DNA of 20,000 nt from Candidatus Woesearchaeota archaeon (GTDB lineage: Archaea > Nanobdellota > Nanobdellia > Woesearchaeales > WAPY01). The notes below the pieces were generated by a model. It was given only the letters and a program-made list of their open reading frames with translations. It ran no database searches and was not told the origin of the DNA. Where the stretch lies: NCBI GenBank assembly GCA_049700835.1, contig JBNAUL010000001.1:44491-64490 (forward strand), given 5' to 3'. Position 1 is the stretch's first letter. Every line of letters begins with the position of its first letter. This document shows, one piece after another, positions 9,948 through 15,907 of this stretch. Made by a program: the position numbers and the translations under genes.

Positions 9948-11657
9948 ATGAAACTATTCCAAATAATAAAAAAGAACATAAGGATACTTGTAAAATCAAA
10001 ATCAACTTTGCTCACAATGATTTTAGGCCCTCTATTGGTAATGTTTCTCCTTGGGCTTGCTTTTGACAATGCAAACATATACAGAATAAACATTGGAGTT
10101 TACTTCAATGAAAAGAATAACCTGACCGAATCCTTTGTGGACAAACTTGAAACAAAGTTCAGGGTTGTGGAATATGAAAACCCTGAAAAGTGCATTGAAA
10201 GCATAAAACTTGAGACAATAAACACATGCATTATTTTTCCTGAAAACATGAGCATAGAAGAAAACAAAACAAACGAAGTTCAGTTCTATGTTGATTACTC
10301 TAAAATAAACCTTGTTTGGATGATTAGGGATGTAATAATGAGCAGTTTAGAGGAGAGAAGCGAGGAGATAACCCAAGATTTAACAAACCAACTGCTTGAA
10401 AAGATTGAAAGAATTGAAAAAGAGGTCAAGGAAAAGCAGCCAATTCTTATAGAAATGACAACCATAAACAACCTGCTGAGCGAGAATGCAAAGAGCGTGC
10501 AGGCAAAATTGAATGAATTGGATGTAAGTTTCAATCCAAGTTCTTTCAAAGCCAGCGAAATAAAAGAACAGATTGCAAAGTTAAAGACATTGAGTTCTGA
10601 TTCAATAGGCAGCTCCAACGACACCTTAAACTACATAAAATCCGTTGTTTCCTCTTCCAATCTTTCCTCATCTGAGAAGAATTCAATCAACAACAAAATT
10701 TTGGAAGCACAAGATGAGTTGAGCAATATAAAGTCAGCGGTAAATAACATTTACAATAATGAAAATTCTGGAGAGCTTAACATCTTGATGAGCAACCTTG
10801 CTTCAAGGATCTCTGAAGTTGAGAAAAAGTTTGAAGCAATCAACAAAACCCTGCAGAATGCAAGCAAGAGCTTGGATTACTCAAAAACCAAACTTTCAGA
10901 GGGGCTTTTAGGAATAATAAAATTGCAAGAAGGTTTCAACAACATAAACAAGGAAATAAGAAGCATAGAAATAAGAAGTGCTGAAAAGATAGTCAAACCA
11001 ATAACAATAACAATAAAACCGCTGAGTTATAAAAAGACCCATTTAAATTTTCTGTTCCCAACATTGGTAACAATAGTTTTAATGTTTGTAAGCATAATGC
11101 TGAGCTCTCTGATGGTTGTCATTGAAAAGAACTCTCCTGCATACTTTAGAAATTGCATAAGTCCTACGCACCAAAGCCTGTTCTCAATAGCAACTATAAT
11201 AACAACTATTTTGGTTGTGATGCCACAATTCCTTATTCTGTTCTGCATAGCAATGATTTATGTAAAAACAGAGTTGATAGCAAGTTTTTGGAGTTCATTT
11301 GCAATAGCTCTTCTAAGCATAATTGTTTTCACATTAATAGGAATGCTTATTGCCCAATTCTTTAAAAGAGAAGAAACTGCAATGGTTGCTGCGCTCATAA
11401 TTAGCACTCTATTCTTGTTTTTATCTAACACCATAATTCCAATTGAAAGCATGAACATAGTTCTTGCGAAGATAGCAAACTACAGCCCCTTTGTCATTTC
11501 AGAATTTCTCTTCAGGCACAGCTTGATATTCCAAACAAAACTCATTAATGTTTTATTTCAGTTAGAAATTCTCTGTTTATACATACTTATTCTGTTTGCA
11601 GTTGTGCTGGCAAAGGACTTTGCTTTTAATAGAAACCATAAGAAGATAAAAACATAA
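9948..11657 (+). CDS. ABC-2 type permease with a large extracellular coiled-coil insert (YhgE/Pip-like architecture)
   Basis: N-terminal TM helix, a long soluble region with heptad-like helical character, then about 5 TM helices (FLFPTLV..., LSNTIIPIE). Directly follows the ATPase gene. Confidence 0.85.
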   Translation: MKLFQIIKKNIRILVKSKSTLLTMILGPLLVMFLLGLAFDNANIYRINIGVYFNEKNNLTESFVDKLETKFRVVEYENPEKCIESIKLETINTCIIFPENMSIEENKTNEVQFYVDYSKINLVWMIRDVIMSSLEERSEEITQDLTNQLLEKIERIEKEVKEKQPILIEMTTINNLLSENAKSVQAKLNELDVSFNPSSFKASEIKEQIAKLKTLSSDSIGSSNDTLNYIKSVVSSSNLSSSEKNSINNKILEAQDELSNIKSAVNNIYNNENSGELNILMSNLASRISEVEKKFEAINKTLQNASKSLDYSKTKLSEGLLGIIKLQEGFNNINKEIRSIEIRSAEKIVKPITITIKPLSYKKTHLNFLFPTLVTIVLMFVSIMLSSLMVVIEKNSPAYFRNCISPTHQSLFSIATIITTILVVMPQFLILFCIAMIYVKTELIASFWSSFAIALLSIIVFTLIGMLIAQFFKREETAMVAALIISTLFLFLSNTIIPIESMNIVLAKIANYSPFVISEFLFRHSLIFQTKLINVLFQLEILCLYILILFAVVLAKDFAFNRNHKKIKT

Positions 11658-12857
11658 AACATAATTAAAACAAAAAAAATTTTGGGTTAATTTTCTTAGT
11701 GGTTATAAAGCAAAAGTGTTAAGAAGCGTACATGTTAAGAACAGTTCTGCTAAAAATAAGAAACTCCAACAACAGTGATTTTACAACAAAATGAAAAAAT
11801 AAAAAACAACAAAGAAAACAACAAAGAGAAAAGATAATAATTATGATGTCAAAACAAGATGCTTGGATAGGCATAAGATTTAACGAAAATATTCAACAGA
11901 AACAGCAAAAGCAGTTCTTAAAGACCATATAATATAGAATAAGGATGAACGAGGATGAACGCACTTAAGAAAAATTCATTTATAAATTAAAATTTAGATT
12001 TATCAGCAAATGATTATAGAATTATGGGCACCATAATCTTTGGCGTTTTAAAAGTTTTTGGTTTATTTTTGCATAAAAATTCACTTTTTGAATATAAAAA
12101 CATATAAAAACTATTTTTATTAACTTTTTATTAAATATTTAAACAGCAAAATCAATAAAAATGTAATTTTTTGTTGATTTTTTGCGATTTTTGTTGCAAT
12201 TTTCGTGTTTTAAAGTAAACAAAGCAAATCTTATAGAAAACTCTCACTTTTTATGAATAAAAATCTTATTATTGTTGGCTAAACTTTATTAAAAATACGT
12301 ATTTTAAAAATTATCAAAAATATCATTAAAAATCTCTAAATCCCTGGTTTAAAACTCATAAAACAATAACAAAAAGTGAGAAAACTAAGATTATTGCATT
12401 CTGTTGAGATTCTTGTACTTAACAGGGACTTAACAAGGCTTAACAGAGTTTTAGAACAAAATTCTGTATAAAAAATCCAAAATGCAATTTTTAACATAAA
12501 ATTGTTTTGTGATATGTATTTTATTTAACAACAATTGTATTTATTATTTATTAATATATCTTTTAAAATTATTATTATAAAATATAATAGTTGCATTTGG
12601 TTGCTCTGATTTTAAGTAATTATTAAAAAGTAAATAAAATAAAATTGTTTGTTCAGTTTGTTTAATCAAGTTGCGCAAAGGTGTTTTTTTCAACAAATCT
12701 TTTTTAAAATTCTTTTTATATTTTGTTTTTTTCGCGCTTAAAATCATGTCCTGATGTGTCCTTGTCATGTCCCGATCATGTCCCGATCATGTCCTTTTTT
12801 CAGGACATGTCCTTAAAAAACAAAGGACAAAAACAGCAAAAGAAGAAATTTCTTTTT
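11658..12857. other. 1.2-kb non-coding AT-rich region between convergent genes, repeat-rich; candidate replication origin or centromere-like locus
   Basis: No credible ORF in an otherwise gene-dense window. 12481-12660 has 27 G+C in 180 bp (15%). Contains several repeat families (see findings). The function is inferred. Confidence 0.5.
12743..12829 (+). repeat. Helically phased direct-repeat array (consensus ATCATGTCCyg) x5, plus palindrome AGGACATGTCCT and a further inverted GGACA
   Basis: TGTCC cores at 12747, 12757, 12768, 12779 and 12790 (spacing 10, 11, 11, 11). Perfect 12-bp palindrome at 12802-12813. GGACA at 12803 and 12825, 22 bp apart. Confidence 0.95.
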
Positions 12858-13619
12858 TTATCTTCCTGAAATCTTTAATTTCATTTCTTCTGTAAGATAA
12901 AATGCCTTTTCTTTTGAAGAAACAAGTTTGTCATTTATACCAAAACCCTTCTTCCTAAGTTCGTAAATTGAATTCCTTATTGTTTTTTCTTCTCTGCCCA
13001 ACATCCTCGACAAATCCGCATATGTCAATGGAGAATCTGATTCATATAAAATTTTTAGCAAGCTCTTTTCTGTTACTGAAAGTTCATTTTCATCGCGAAA
13101 TTCTGCAATTCTTTTTTTAACAACAAAATTCTTTGATTTTTTGAGTTCCCTATCAAAAAATTCTTTTTCAAACAAGAAAACCCTGTCTTTTCTCACGTCC
13201 TGATATGTCCCAATCATGTCCCGATCATGTCCCGACATGTCCTTATCATGTCCTGACGCGTCCTTTTTTTTGGAAAGCTCTGATTTTATTGCTTCAAACA
13301 ACTCTCTTATGTCATTGTGAACTTTTTTGATTTCAGCTATTTCATATTCCAAGCCCCTTTTCTCTTCAGATATTTTTAATGATGAAACATTGCTTTCAAG
13401 AAGAGCTGTCTTTTTCTCAATTTCATTCAACCTTGAAACAAGAGAATCTAGTCTTTTGTTCTGCTCATCAACCAAAACCCTTATTTCGGCATGTTCTGAT
13501 TCGTTCTTTAGAATCTTTGCATTAAAGAAATCTATCCAAAGTTTTACATTAAAAAACTCTGCCTTTATTTTTAAAAATGCTGCTTTTAGGGCTTGATTTA
13601 TGTTTTCTAAGCTTGGCAT
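12858..13619 (-). CDS. Uncharacterised protein: N-terminal coiled coil, repeat-encoded linker, C-terminal winged-HTH DNA-binding domain
   Basis: C-terminus LSVTEKSLLKILYESDSPLTYADLSRMLGREEKTIRNSIYELRKKGFGI reads as an HTH_11/MarR-like wHTH. The N-terminal half has heptad character. Start moved from 13670 to ATG 13619, with a TTTTAAAT TATA-like box about 25 bp upstream. Confidence 0.8.
   Translation of the reverse strand: MPSLENINQALKAAFLKIKAEFFNVKLWIDFFNAKILKNESEHAEIRVLVDEQNKRLDSLVSRLNEIEKKTALLESNVSSLKISEEKRGLEYEIAEIKKVHNDIRELFEAIKSELSKKKDASGHDKDMSGHDRDMIGTYQDVRKDRVFLFEKEFFDRELKKSKNFVVKKRIAEFRDENELSVTEKSLLKILYESDSPLTYADLSRMLGREEKTIRNSIYELRKKGFGINDKLVSSKEKAFYLTEEMKLKISGR
13192..13265 (+). repeat. 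Intragenic helically phased repeat array (same ATCATGTCC unit) x7
   Basis: YGTCC cores at 13196, 13206, 13217, 13228, 13238, 13249 and 13259. Spacings 10, 11, 11, 10, 11, 10 give 63 bp over 6 steps, or 10.5 bp. On the minus strand it encodes DASGHDK-DMSGHDR-DMIGTYQ-DV. Confidence 0.95.
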
Positions 13620-13638
13620 AATCAAAAAATAAACGCTT

Positions 13639-13650
13639 AGATTTAAAATC
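13639..13650 (-). promoter_or_regulatory. Putative TATA box of the wHTH gene (leaderless transcript)
   Basis: The minus strand reads AAAAGATTTTAAATCT, centred about 25 bp before ATG 13619, with a purine-rich BRE-like stretch 5' of it. Confidence 0.45.
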
Positions 13651-13940
13651 TTTTTGTTTTTTAAAATCATTTTTGGGCACCATAAATTTATTGATTTTGC
13701 AGTTTGTTTATGAAAAGTGAGAGTTGGCTATTATGTTTTTTGGATTTATAATAAAAGTTTACTGAATATACTGCTGAATATACTAATAAACAATAAAAAT
13801 AATAATGCAAAATACATTTTTGAAAACATATCTTATTTTACATTTTTGGTTTATTTTTTATTTTTGTCAAAAAACCGTTTAAATATGGTTTAAATATGGT
13901 TTTAATAAGCTTTATAAATAAAGAAATAATAGATTTTTTT

Positions 13941-15005
13941 ATGAAACATATCAGCAGTTATGAACTGATGAGACTTATTGAAGAAATGGAATTTTTAATA
14001 GGTAAAAGGCTTGAAAAGGCGTTTCAGGAGAACAGCGAACTCTTTTTGAGATTTGACACAAAACCAAAAACAACCGTTAGAATAAGCATTCCAAATTTCA
14101 TATACATTACAAAAAATTCTCCAAAGTCCTTTATTGGAATCTCAAAGATGATAAGGAGCTTATTCTCCAATCATAAACTTGCATCCATGAGACAGCACAA
14201 TTTTGACAGATTGGTAGAGTTTGATTTCAGCAGCAGAAAGATTTTCATAGAATTGTTTGATAAAGGAAACATAGTCCTGTGCGATGAAAATAATAAGATA
14301 ATTGGATTTCTGAGAAGCGAAAACATGAATAGAAGTATAAAGAACGGGCAGAAGTATTCTGCTCCTGAAAAAATAGATCCCTTCTCTATAAGCAAAAAAG
14401 AATTTGCAGAATTGTTTAACAATAAAAATAAGGAGCTTGTAAAGTTCATTGCATCTGAACTCGGATTTGGGGGGGTTTATGCTGAGGAAATATGCCTTAA
14501 CTCAGGAATAAACAAAAACAAGAAATTCTTAAGCGAAGAGGAATGCGAACTCATTTTAAAAATAATTCATGAAATAAAAAATAAAGAAAAAAAGCCTTCA
14601 ATTGTATATGAGAACAATCATCCTATAGATGTTGTCCCAATTGAATTAAAGTTCTATTCTGGTAAAGAACACATTCTGTTTGAAAATTACTCTTCTGCAT
14701 TGGAAGAATTCTGCAAAATCACGCAAAAGCGGGTTGTTGATAAGGAAGAAGAAAAAATTTTAAAAGCATTGGAAATGCAGAAGCGTGGAATTGAAAACAT
14801 AATTAAAGAACAAAGAGAGATTGAATTGATAGTCAGTTTGATTTATCAAAACTTTCAAAATATAAATAATTTCTTTGAAAAGATTAGAAAAATAATTAAA
14901 GAACCAACAAATAATAATGAAAAGGAAGAAAAAATCAAATCCCTGAAGAAATTTAAGGTTCATGAAATAAATTTCAAGGAAAAATTCGTTGTTTTGGAGT
15001 TATAA
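13941..15005 (+). CDS. NFACT/Rqc2 (FbpA-like) protein, N-terminal half only (NFACT-N + HhH + first coiled coil)
   Basis: QHNFDRLVEF, IELFDKGNIVLCD, LGFGGVYAEEICLNSGI (HhH), DVVPIEL. The protein stops before CC2 and NFACT-R. ATG 13941 is preferred because a TTTATAAA box lies at 13911. Confidence 0.85.
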   Translation: MKHISSYELMRLIEEMEFLIGKRLEKAFQENSELFLRFDTKPKTTVRISIPNFIYITKNSPKSFIGISKMIRSLFSNHKLASMRQHNFDRLVEFDFSSRKIFIELFDKGNIVLCDENNKIIGFLRSENMNRSIKNGQKYSAPEKIDPFSISKKEFAELFNNKNKELVKFIASELGFGGVYAEEICLNSGINKNKKFLSEEECELILKIIHEIKNKEKKPSIVYENNHPIDVVPIELKFYSGKEHILFENYSSALEEFCKITQKRVVDKEEEKILKALEMQKRGIENIIKEQREIELIVSLIYQNFQNINNFFEKIRKIIKEPTNNNEKEEKIKSLKKFKVHEINFKEKFVVLEL

Positions 15006-15007
15006 GC

Positions 15008-15907
15008 ATGCAAAAAACCGATAATAAAAATGATTCAAATAATTCAGAGAAAGCAGAAAAAGGTTTAGGTAGTTTAGTAATAAAGCCAAACATAAATGCT
15101 GTGTTCTTTTTCAGTGTTCTCAATATAATATTTGTCCTGATTTTAATCTTCGGAATTTCAAAGCTGATAGTATATTTTGTTGGAGAAAATCCGTTAAACT
15201 CACTGATAGAAATCTTGAGCATTTCAGGGATAGTAAAGGGCGGAGAAGGTTTAATATCATTAATAAATAATGTTTTAATTTTTATAATAATTATTTCCTG
15301 TTCAACCTATCTGTTGCTAAGTATTATAAGGGTAAATAACCTCTGCTTGGAATTAGAAGAGTTCTCTTTGAATTACACTTTTGGAATACTTGTAAAAAAG
15401 AACGAGAGAATAAGCTATGATAATATCATTAAAGTAAAATACAAAGAGTTCGTATTTGGGCTTGGAAAGATTATCATTGAAAGATACAATGTTGACAAAA
15501 CAATAGAAATGCCGTTTGTAAGCAGCGTAAGAGAGAATTTTGAAATTCTTAGGCAGAGCATAAAGGAAGGGTTGAAGAGAGAACTAAAAGAAGAAATTAA
15601 AAAAACCAGTGAAGGAAAACTTCCAGAGTATAATGTCAATGAAATTATTGAGATGCTGACAAAGGAAAATACTGATGCAAACGAAGTGCTAAACACTTTT
15701 AAAAACATCTCAAAAACTCAACCAATTACTAAAGAAACAAAGAATGTTTTCAAGCTTGTGCTCTTGGAACTTATAAAGAGAAGGATTATTAGCAGAGAAA
15801 TCATGAGGGAAGTTCTCAGGGCTTTGAGAGAACAAAACTTTATATCAAAGGAAGATATTGTTGACATAGTTGAGCTCAGATTTGCTATTGAAGAATCAAT
15901 ATATTAA
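15008..15907 (+). CDS. Membrane protein with two TM helices, a bacterial PH-like (bPH_2) domain and a helical C-terminal domain
   Basis: LNYTFGILVKKNERISYDNI...FGLGKIII resembles the bPH_2 pattern. Two hydrophobic segments precede it. Confidence 0.6.
   Translation: MQKTDNKNDSNNSEKAEKGLGSLVIKPNINAVFFFSVLNIIFVLILIFGISKLIVYFVGENPLNSLIEILSISGIVKGGEGLISLINNVLIFIIIISCSTYLLLSIIRVNNLCLELEEFSLNYTFGILVKKNERISYDNIIKVKYKEFVFGLGKIIIERYNVDKTIEMPFVSSVRENFEILRQSIKEGLKRELKEEIKKTSEGKLPEYNVNEIIEMLTKENTDANEVLNTFKNISKTQPITKETKNVFKLVLLELIKRRIISREIMREVLRALREQNFISKEDIVDIVELRFAIEESIY

Follow-up and report, generated by a model that had tools for sequence, protein, structure and literature searches.

In bacteriophage lambda, the O protein is described as binding iterons placed midway along its own gene, where the DNA codes for a flexible linker; in the Stx phages, whose origins carry six iterons, the extra iterons are reported to add 13 residues to the protein (PMC6022878, PMC7466680), and Stx-phage iterons have been recoded synonymously (PMC7466680). 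The parC site of R1 is described as two sets of five iterons bound by ParR. ParR itself has the ribbon-helix-helix fold. For tubC, the site bound by TubR, direct repeats in split blocks are reported, together with dual roles in repression and segregation (PMC6009700). In both systems, binding by the small protein is described as cooperative, and the protein represses the operon that encodes it. An account of the Thermococcales places a cluster of origin recognition box (ORB) and mini-ORB elements in the coding sequence of dp1, with a twin cluster in nearby non-coding DNA (PMC1904270). Here, we describe a locus in a 20,000-nucleotide stretch of the genome of a Candidatus Woesearchaeota archaeon (assembly GCA_049700835.1, contig JBNAUL010000001.1; hereafter the window), in which seven phased copies of the word GGAC(A) lie within the gene of a winged-helix protein and a second, non-coding array of the same word follows its stop codon. 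The locus would work like the lambda origin, parC/tubC and ORB-in-dp1 systems and is a member of none of them.

The likeness to gene O, as far as the accounts cited above describe it, is that the binding repeats of a protein lie in the linker codons of its own gene (the binding here being predicted from sequence), that the units are inverted-repeat-like and that repeat number sets protein length. The array of the window (13192–13265) encodes predicted-disordered residues 117–145, which matches the mid-gene position of the lambda-type linker. Lambda has iterons of 18–19 bp, an adjacent AT-rich unwinding region, a mobile replicon and an N-terminal DNA-binding domain in its protein, whereas the locus described here has units of 10–11 bp, a second array outside the gene, a chromosomal and syntenic setting and a C-terminal DNA-binding domain, with neither sequence similarity to O nor skew evidence for an origin. 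With parC/ParR and tubC/TubR, as these are described, it shares two blocks of short phased direct repeats, here of 7 and 5 units of 10–11 bp. However, parC and tubC lie upstream of the gene of their binder and next to a motor gene (ParM, TubZ), whereas the arrays here lie inside and after the gene. No ParM, TubZ or ParA is found among the 18 scanned proteins of the window, the neighbours being NFACT and AAA_18/ABC-2 proteins; the arrays do not overlap a promoter (GGACA occurs at 2.8 per kb upstream, although the arrays of a sister clade do lie upstream), and the protein shows no sequence similarity to TubR. The dp1 repeats are described as bound by Orc1/Cdc6 at an origin, in a host gene that does not encode their binder. 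In contrast, the present locus lies 55 kb from orc1 and its word co-varies with the protein of the host gene itself; clustering of the ORB type at orc1/cdc6 was not found, there being no GGACA chain near orc1. MarR/Lrs14-type regulators such as AbfR2 share the winged-helix fold of the protein and lack its 118-residue N-terminal helix and its repeat-coded linker.

A phased array within a winged-helix gene and its non-coding twin

The elements on which the analysis centres are as follows.

12858–13619 (stop codon included), minus strand: gene for a 253-residue protein, with its ATG at 13619; the database protein P0001 is this 253-residue form
13192–13265, minus strand: intragenic array of seven units, GGAC(A)nnnnn(n) on the coding strand, 10–11 bp apart, encoding linker residues 117–145
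12743–12794, minus strand: non-coding twin array of five units of the GGAC(A) word with a period of 10–11 bp, beginning 64 nt past the stop codon
12802–12813: perfect palindrome AGGACATGTCCT, between the stop codon (12858–12860) and the twin array

The initial annotation of this DNA reported seven GTCC cores at regular spacings within coding DNA, and a recount on the plus strand agrees, placing them at 13197, 13207, 13218, 13229, 13239, 13250 and 13260 with gaps of 10, 11, 11, 10, 11 and 10 bp (mean 10.5 bp). The array lies within the minus-strand open reading frame (ORF) 12858–13670, on which the word reads GGAC(A), and its units fall in codon phases 2, 0, 2, 0, 2, 1 and 2, giving the peptide KKKDASGHDKDMSGHDRDMIGTYQDVRKD in the gene of the window. 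Tandem Repeats Finder detects, at 13193–13265, a period of 11 (5.7 copies) and one of 21 (3.4 copies). The array is richer in G+C than other parts of the gene, as had been stated, with a G+C fraction of 0.514 at 13192–13265 against 0.305 in the remainder. While GTCC alone is not enriched across the window (47 observed versus 40 expected), ATGTCC is, with 15 copies against a mean of 4.2 and a maximum of 11 in shuffled sequences (0 of 200 shuffles reach 15), and 11 of these 15 copies fall into two clusters, at 12746–12812 and 13205–13253. The claim of a period of exactly 10.5 bp holds for this array and does not carry over to orthologues, where the mean over 48 intragenic spacings from nine loci is 10.8 bp (omitting two gaps of 22 and 33 bp, each itself a multiple of 11). 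Nor is the alternation of 10 and 11 bp to give a frame-keeping 21 bp a general rule, since orthologues show runs of 11, 11, 11, 11 or 10, 10, 10.

The second of the two clusters of the word went unmentioned in the initial annotation: the twin array and the perfect palindrome GGACATGTCC together span 12743–12813, and a 43-nt stretch of the twin is 88% identical to 13193–13235. In the genome to which the window belongs (G000; a 1.07 Mb assembly of 4 contigs, 98.7% complete), chains of at least three GGACA/TGTCC words at a spacing of 9–12 bp occur only at these two arrays. Genome-wide, the pattern ATGTCC-N5-ATGTCC has five matches, all of them at the locus, with none for the reversed control, and the 10-bp palindrome core is present in a single copy against 0.25 expected. 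Elsewhere in the genome, 7-mer half-sites are at or below background, and there is therefore no sign of a regulon. Likewise, in five other genomes of the clade, 42 of the 55 phased GGACA pairs are at the locus (11/12, 6/8, 8/10, 6/8 and 11/17), the remainder being singletons comparable in number to a reversed-pattern control.

The AlphaFold2 model of the protein, built on a 55-sequence alignment, has a mean predicted local distance difference test score (pLDDT) of 86.3 and consists of a single unbroken helix (residues 4–121), a weak helix (residues 146–163) and a winged helix (residues 177–253). pLDDT falls below 50 at residues 123–129 and 131–143, and the array-coded residues 117–145 coincide with this low-confidence linker. 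The placement of the array in a tolerant linker between the long helix and the winged helix, as first proposed from sequence, is thereby borne out (pLDDT below 50 over residues 123–143). Pfam assigns HTH_11 to the protein (27.2 bits against a cut-off of 25), HTH_24 being the only other Pfam match. In a Foldseek comparison, the C-terminal domain falls with regulators of the MarR type (MepR, E 1.3e-4), and the best local superposition is that with the Lrs14-type AbfR2 of Sulfolobus acidocaldarius (PDB identifier 6cmv), with a root mean square deviation of 2.8 over 80 columns, 26% identity and an E-value of 7.7e-4. NCBIfam models for Lrs14 (17.6 against 90 bits) and Sta1 (17.3 against 80 bits) remain far from their cut-offs, as does that for Csa3; a PHROG scan of the protein gave no match, and a PDB sequence search with the ortholog profile returned only coiled-coil noise and weak Csa3 winged-helix matches (E 0.005). 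A homodimer prediction with two copies scored 0.12 against a mark of 0.42, a result that says nothing either way.

DNA-level selection on a translated linker

Homologues of the protein were found in 19 of 61 related genomes by protein search, in 99 of 301 genomes sampled from the class (94 of the 205 of high quality) with a ten-sequence profile, and in 417 clusters at 50% identity among 1.84 billion representatives in an HMMER profile search (E ≤ 0.001), which was used in place of a word-index homologue search that returned only four close relatives. Nine full-length loci, that of the window and eight from other genomes, form what we call the near clade; their proteins share 30–65% identity and come from several families. 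Both arrays are present in all nine, in constant orientation relative to the gene, and a palindrome or near-palindrome occurs at the equivalent site in the near-clade orthologues. Over the nine loci, GGACA/TGTCC reaches 33.7 per kb in the linker window and, across the 200 nt that follow the stop codon, 46.1 per kb, as against 2.8 per kb upstream, 1.7 per kb in the remainder of the ORF and 1.2 per kb farther off. In a tenth genome (G004), the locus is split across two contig ends (L013, L025), exactly at the arrays. Short-read contigs were seen to break at or near the arrays in both G004 (L013, L025) and run X1 (at 12794/12834 and 12994/13005). Because assemblies break in this manner, the gene is probably often fragmented or missing in drafts, and its true distribution may be wider than counted.

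Because the near-clade period is 10–11 bp, its arrays are translated in every frame: of 59 intragenic units counted over the nine loci, 20 are in codon phase 0, 18 in phase 1 and 21 in phase 2. This even use of phases means that the peptides differ while the DNA word persists, and the orthologue linkers combine the three readings (GH/GQ/GT; RT; D with M, K or I after it) and vary in both length and sequence. The expectation derived from the window sequence, that close homologues would keep the DNA motif while peptide and length vary, thus agrees with the presence of GGAC(A) arrays in 9/9 orthologues and with their 20/18/21 phase distribution. A comparison of G000 with its congener G001 points in the same direction. 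Their amino acid identity is 16/29 in the array-coded part and 150/223 in the rest of the gene, whereas at identical residues the third codon positions agree in 14 of 15 cases within the array against 90 of 147 elsewhere. Synonymous change therefore appears suppressed in the array, as had been predicted, although the sample is small. A conserved SGHD peptide with free synonymous change, the pattern named beforehand as pointing to selection on the protein, was not seen.

The true reading frame is open across the array in 9/9 loci, compared with 7 of the 18 unused frames of the same arrays and, in the non-coding arrays, 11 of 27 frames. Avoidance of unit variants that would create a stop accounts for the open frame; for example, the common unit GGACATGA gives a TGA stop in one phase and is avoided in that phase. 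Since both the DNA word and the open frame are kept, the array DNA is truly dual-coding, and DNA-level selection on translated DNA is, judging from these comparisons, well supported. The strongest support for selection on the DNA sequence itself, which the initial annotation had proposed, comes from the non-coding array of the identical word and from the sister clade described below, in which the word is exchanged in both places.

Two arrays of 10/11-bp units may also be read as a contingency locus, in which the winged helix would be turned off by the frameshift that results when a unit is added or removed, or would be deleted by recombination between the arrays. The unit length is not a multiple of three, the two direct arrays (88% identical over 43 nt) flank the segment that encodes the domain, and assemblies break at the arrays. 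However, the 9 near-clade and 17 sister-clade full-length genes are all in frame, the heterogeneous units are poor substrates for slippage, and neither the non-coding twin array nor the 12-bp period of the sister clade would be explained. The contigs of two DNA runs contain no length variant and no array-to-array joint, bearing in mind that contigs drop rare variants; a single contig joint with a 21-letter side was taken as unrelated, the long contig that holds it matching the stretch in short pieces only. We consider such switching highly improbable.

Both arrays fold better as single strands than shuffled controls (z −3.71 and −3.46; 0 of 200 shuffles equal them), and both share the orientation of the gene in 9/9 loci. 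Near-palindromic units could accordingly be imagined to fold in the mRNA and its 3′ untranslated region and to control translation or stability, or to form the site of an RNA-binding protein. The folding advantage is, however, a trivial consequence of the palindromic nature of the units. T-runs separate the stop codon from the downstream array, and a scan of 11000–14200 matched no Rfam family (the best hit being a chance microRNA match, E 0.53). The extragenic arrays of the sister clade lie upstream of a TATA box and carry the word in both orientations; their position upstream of the TATA box argues for a function at the level of DNA rather than RNA, and we regard an RNA or single-strand element as very unlikely.

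Co-variation of the word with the protein

The sister clade comprises 17 more distant family loci, with ORFs of about 200–230 codons. Their word is a different palindrome, AAACAGCTGTTT, which forms arrays with a period of about 10 bp, accompanied by full palindromes, 60–200 bp upstream of a TATA-like box; these upstream arrays contain the word in both orientations. The same word recurs three times at a period of 12 bp in the linker codons, where it is read as KQTAVYAVQTGVQTGVQTP, the 12-bp period holding a single reading frame (a repeated VQTG peptide). The two clades hence differ in layout, the sister clade with an extragenic array upstream of the promoter and a period of 12, and the near clade with an array after the stop codon, a period of 10–11 bp and a distance of 55–122 kb from orc1. 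In the sister clade, AACAG/CTGTT is densest in the linker (24.3 per kb), followed by the upstream region (14.5 per kb), and falls to 3.8 per kb over the remainder of the ORF and to 3.0 per kb far away. By such per-kb counts, neither clade is enriched in the word of the other. A few isolated palindromes elsewhere in sister-clade genomes are near control level.

Co-variation is also seen at finer scale. Among near-clade loci, exact 9-mer variants of the linker unit match the downstream array of their own genome at 0.469, versus 0.242 for those of other genomes; 11 of 20000 label permutations reach the observed value, which is indicative only, as related genomes are not independent. In three loci, still other words, of the GTCTGTC type in one locus and of the GAATGAATG type in two, are common to the linker of a convergent paralogue and the region upstream of that paralogue. 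A crude comparison of k-mers shared between ORF and flank over 41 loci was confounded by shared clade motifs and was replaced by the per-clade counts given above and by an unbiased word test, in which a 6-mer with at least three copies in the linker window must also have at least three copies in the 560 nt flank. Every near-clade locus passes this test (9/9), as do 13/17 loci of the sister clade; of the other loci only one passes (1/15), through a word that is also common far away. For the distant subclades, an 8-mer listing gave no clear match between linker and flank of the primary gene. Sharing of a word between linker and flank is common, not universal, in the superfamily.

The arrays may instead bind a different factor, such as a chromatin protein or Orc1/Cdc6, with the gene merely as their host and the link to its own product a coincidence. 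Against this, a different protein clade has a different word, and the finer variants of the unit are matched within genomes; the arrays occur only at this gene in six genomes, and the AT-rich region beside orc1 contains no GGACA array. An unrelated reader of the arrays is thus, in our estimate, unlikely.

Additional repeats were noted around the sister-clade genes. The convergent paralogue, itself a coiled coil followed by a linker and a winged helix with weak HTH_36/DnaD_N/HTH_11 matches, follows the sister-clade gene (at L054, L055, L047 and L041; L040, 2590–2975; L036, 2440–2810; L046, 2490–2850), and its linkers are coded by repeats of the (ACAG)n or GAATGAATG type. Several copies of a AAAGTGAGAG-type word, irregularly spaced, are found in intergenic DNA downstream of sister-clade genes and at other loci (L054, 1860–2000; L055, 1890–2100; L047, 1880–2050; L046, 2080–2270; L040, 2200–2220 and 2970–2985). 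A conserved dyad-like non-coding element of the GTGCACTTAGGTTA... type, often preceded by GATGCAAA...TTTGCATC, is located just upstream of the sister-clade arrays (L054, 990–1030; L051, 1010–1045; L041, 915–945; L043, 895–925; L044, 1055–1085).

Proposed binding by the product of the gene and its possible role

Based on the sequence comparisons above, we consider it very likely that the arrays are DNA-level protein-binding sites, and the fuller statement, that they are iteron-like DNA-level sites bound by the product of the gene itself, seems to us probable. On one face of the DNA, each successive GGACA(T) word, a helical turn from the last, would be filled by a winged helix, and the long helix would pair or bundle protein molecules, so that a cooperative nucleoprotein complex would bracket the approximately 450 bp that encode the winged helix. 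An occupied intragenic array could obstruct elongation, and the two arrays jointly could loop the intervening 450 bp; dosage feedback, through such a roadblock or loop on the gene's own transcription unit, would be the likely first effect. As there are no other clustered sites for the protein, feedback alone seems insufficient as a purpose, and the uniqueness of the site in the chromosome, along with the helix of about 118 residues, suggests that the complex may serve as a centromere-like landmark. A structural role of this kind, as a unique chromosomal mark, is the extension that we prefer and that may hold here. RacA and MatP, which are bacterial coiled-coil DNA anchors, provide functional analogies. 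The identity of the binder, the binding geometry and the physiological output of the arrays are, in this scheme, those that we infer.

Several observations weigh against binding by the gene's own product in the form proposed. For the primary gene, the 15 more distant family loci are without sharing between linker and flank (1/15 in the word test), and at three loci the linker words are not accompanied by any flank array within 500 nt. The intragenic period of the sister clade is 12 bp, which is not helical, and the co-variation between clades reflects few independent events, related genomes not being independent. The near-clade arrays do not overlap the promoter, and the downstream one is situated between convergent 3′ ends, an unusual place for an operator. 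Moreover, another protein could in principle read the arrays, and a regulator with clustered sites only in its own gene has no obvious output. A scan of the 18 proteins of the window revealed no adjacent partition nucleoside triphosphatase, the only ParA/MinD-like gene being 120 kb off (C1:177.7 kb).

The layout also invites a reading as an iteron-type secondary origin inside an initiator gene, as in lambda, the winged-helix protein then being an Orc1-independent initiator. The lambda reports describe a similar arrangement, with iterons in the middle of gene O, a flexible linker and residues added by extra iterons (PMC6022878, PMC7466680), and an ORB cluster is reported within the gene dp1 of Thermococcales (PMC1904270). 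The units are near-palindromic, their single strands folding better than shuffles (z −3.7, −3.5), and in G000 an AT-rich tract of 1.1 kb, with a G+C fraction of 0.23 and no long ORF, comes after the downstream array; the intragenic array is abutted by only an 8-nt A/T run. However, other orthologous loci have a gene about 130–200 bp past the array and not an AT-rich tract. Cumulative GC skew along contig C1 reaches its lowest value at about 100 kb, beside orc1/cdc6 (C1:112439), and the locus (C1:57.2–57.8 kb) shows no turning point of the skew. The distance between the family gene and orc1 ranges from 4 kb to 329 kb among six genomes, being 55 kb at the locus of the window; 122 kb in the near-clade genome G228; 329 kb in G021, whose match to the family is weak; 31 kb in G030; 6 kb in G284; and 4 kb in G144, sister clade. 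Proximity to the origin thus holds in the two sister-clade genomes checked and not in the near clade. The protein is without similarity to O/Rep initiators and without a PHROG match, and its synteny is chromosomal and vertically inherited. Taken together, we find an origin at this locus quite unlikely.

At C1:110600–111540 (L026, 1–600), directly upstream of the single orc1/cdc6, we noted about 900 nt of extremely AT-rich DNA with no ORF of more than 82 codons. This tract, located at the GC-skew minimum, is likely the chromosomal origin; a quick repeat scan of it showed no clear repeated boxes.

Going beyond the preferred reading of the arrays as sites of the gene's own product, one may picture a class-wide DPANN family of coiled-coil/winged-helix proteins in which the linker would be a translated cis-element, carrying the protein's own binding array with a twin outside the gene, and in which the word would co-evolve with the protein. 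The complex would then be a unique landmark, either an archaeal centromere- or kinetochore-like anchor or an Orc1-independent replicator, operating without an adjacent motor. We put this forward tentatively and think it doubtful in its entirety.

The intragenic array provides a clean natural case of dual coding, in which helically phased units with a period not divisible by three are translated in each of the frames while the gene stays open. Some low-complexity linkers are accordingly shaped by a function at the level of DNA and not of protein, which bears on annotation, on ratios of nonsynonymous to synonymous change (dN/dS) and on disorder predictions. Members of the family, for which no function is described, are widespread among archaea of the Woese- and Pacearchaeota type; within the literature searched, no paper that we found deals with these genes or with arrays inside genes of DPANN archaea. 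If the complex does mark the chromosome for segregation or replication, it would offer a testable route into DNA handling in minimal, uncultured cells. Many lineages supply a protein together with its matching DNA word, and these pairs could also serve as a data set for learning the rules of winged-helix recognition.

Flanking sequences and neighbouring genes

Two further elements of the transcription unit were read from the sequence.

13640–13653, minus strand: putative TATA-like box, AAAGATTTTAAATC on the coding strand, about 25 nt upstream of the ATG at 13619
12814–12857, minus strand: T-rich stretch with runs of 5–6 T on the coding strand, between the stop codon and the palindrome

The open frame of the gene runs on to 13670 (270 aa). 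Sister-clade genes have a similar TATA-like sequence, AAAGGTTTTTAAA, at an equal distance from the start. The T-rich stretch is possibly an archaeal termination signal, in which case the twin array would be untranscribed.

Among near-clade loci, a divergent NFACT_N gene is found upstream (the window, L007–L010 and L028) and a convergent AAA_18 gene downstream (L008, L010, L011, L012, L014 and L028), with ABC-2 transporter genes beyond. This conserved synteny indicates a vertically inherited chromosomal gene and not a mobile element, and the downstream gene, being convergent, leaves the twin array flanked by two 3′ ends that face each other, a position in which one would not expect a promoter. 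The kinase-like AAA_18 gene is absent from both G000 and the congeneric G001; tblastn with three orthologous proteins found no match to it in the G000 genome at E ≤ 1e-5. A tRNA scan of the window found none. The NFACT_N gene of the window (RqcH-like, 13896–15005) has its usual C-terminal part split off or missing, and the ORF next after it (15008–15907, 299 aa) has no Pfam match.

Between the twin array and the ABC-2 permease gene, 11658–12742 is an AT-rich tract of about 1.1 kb (G+C fraction 0.18–0.24) with no ORF of more than 74 codons. It was considered as a remnant of the AAA_18 gene and rejected as such, none of the tblastn matches of the three orthologous proteins there being better than E 0.62. 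The tract shares only short patches with its counterpart in G001, the best of them 32 nt long at 91% identity.

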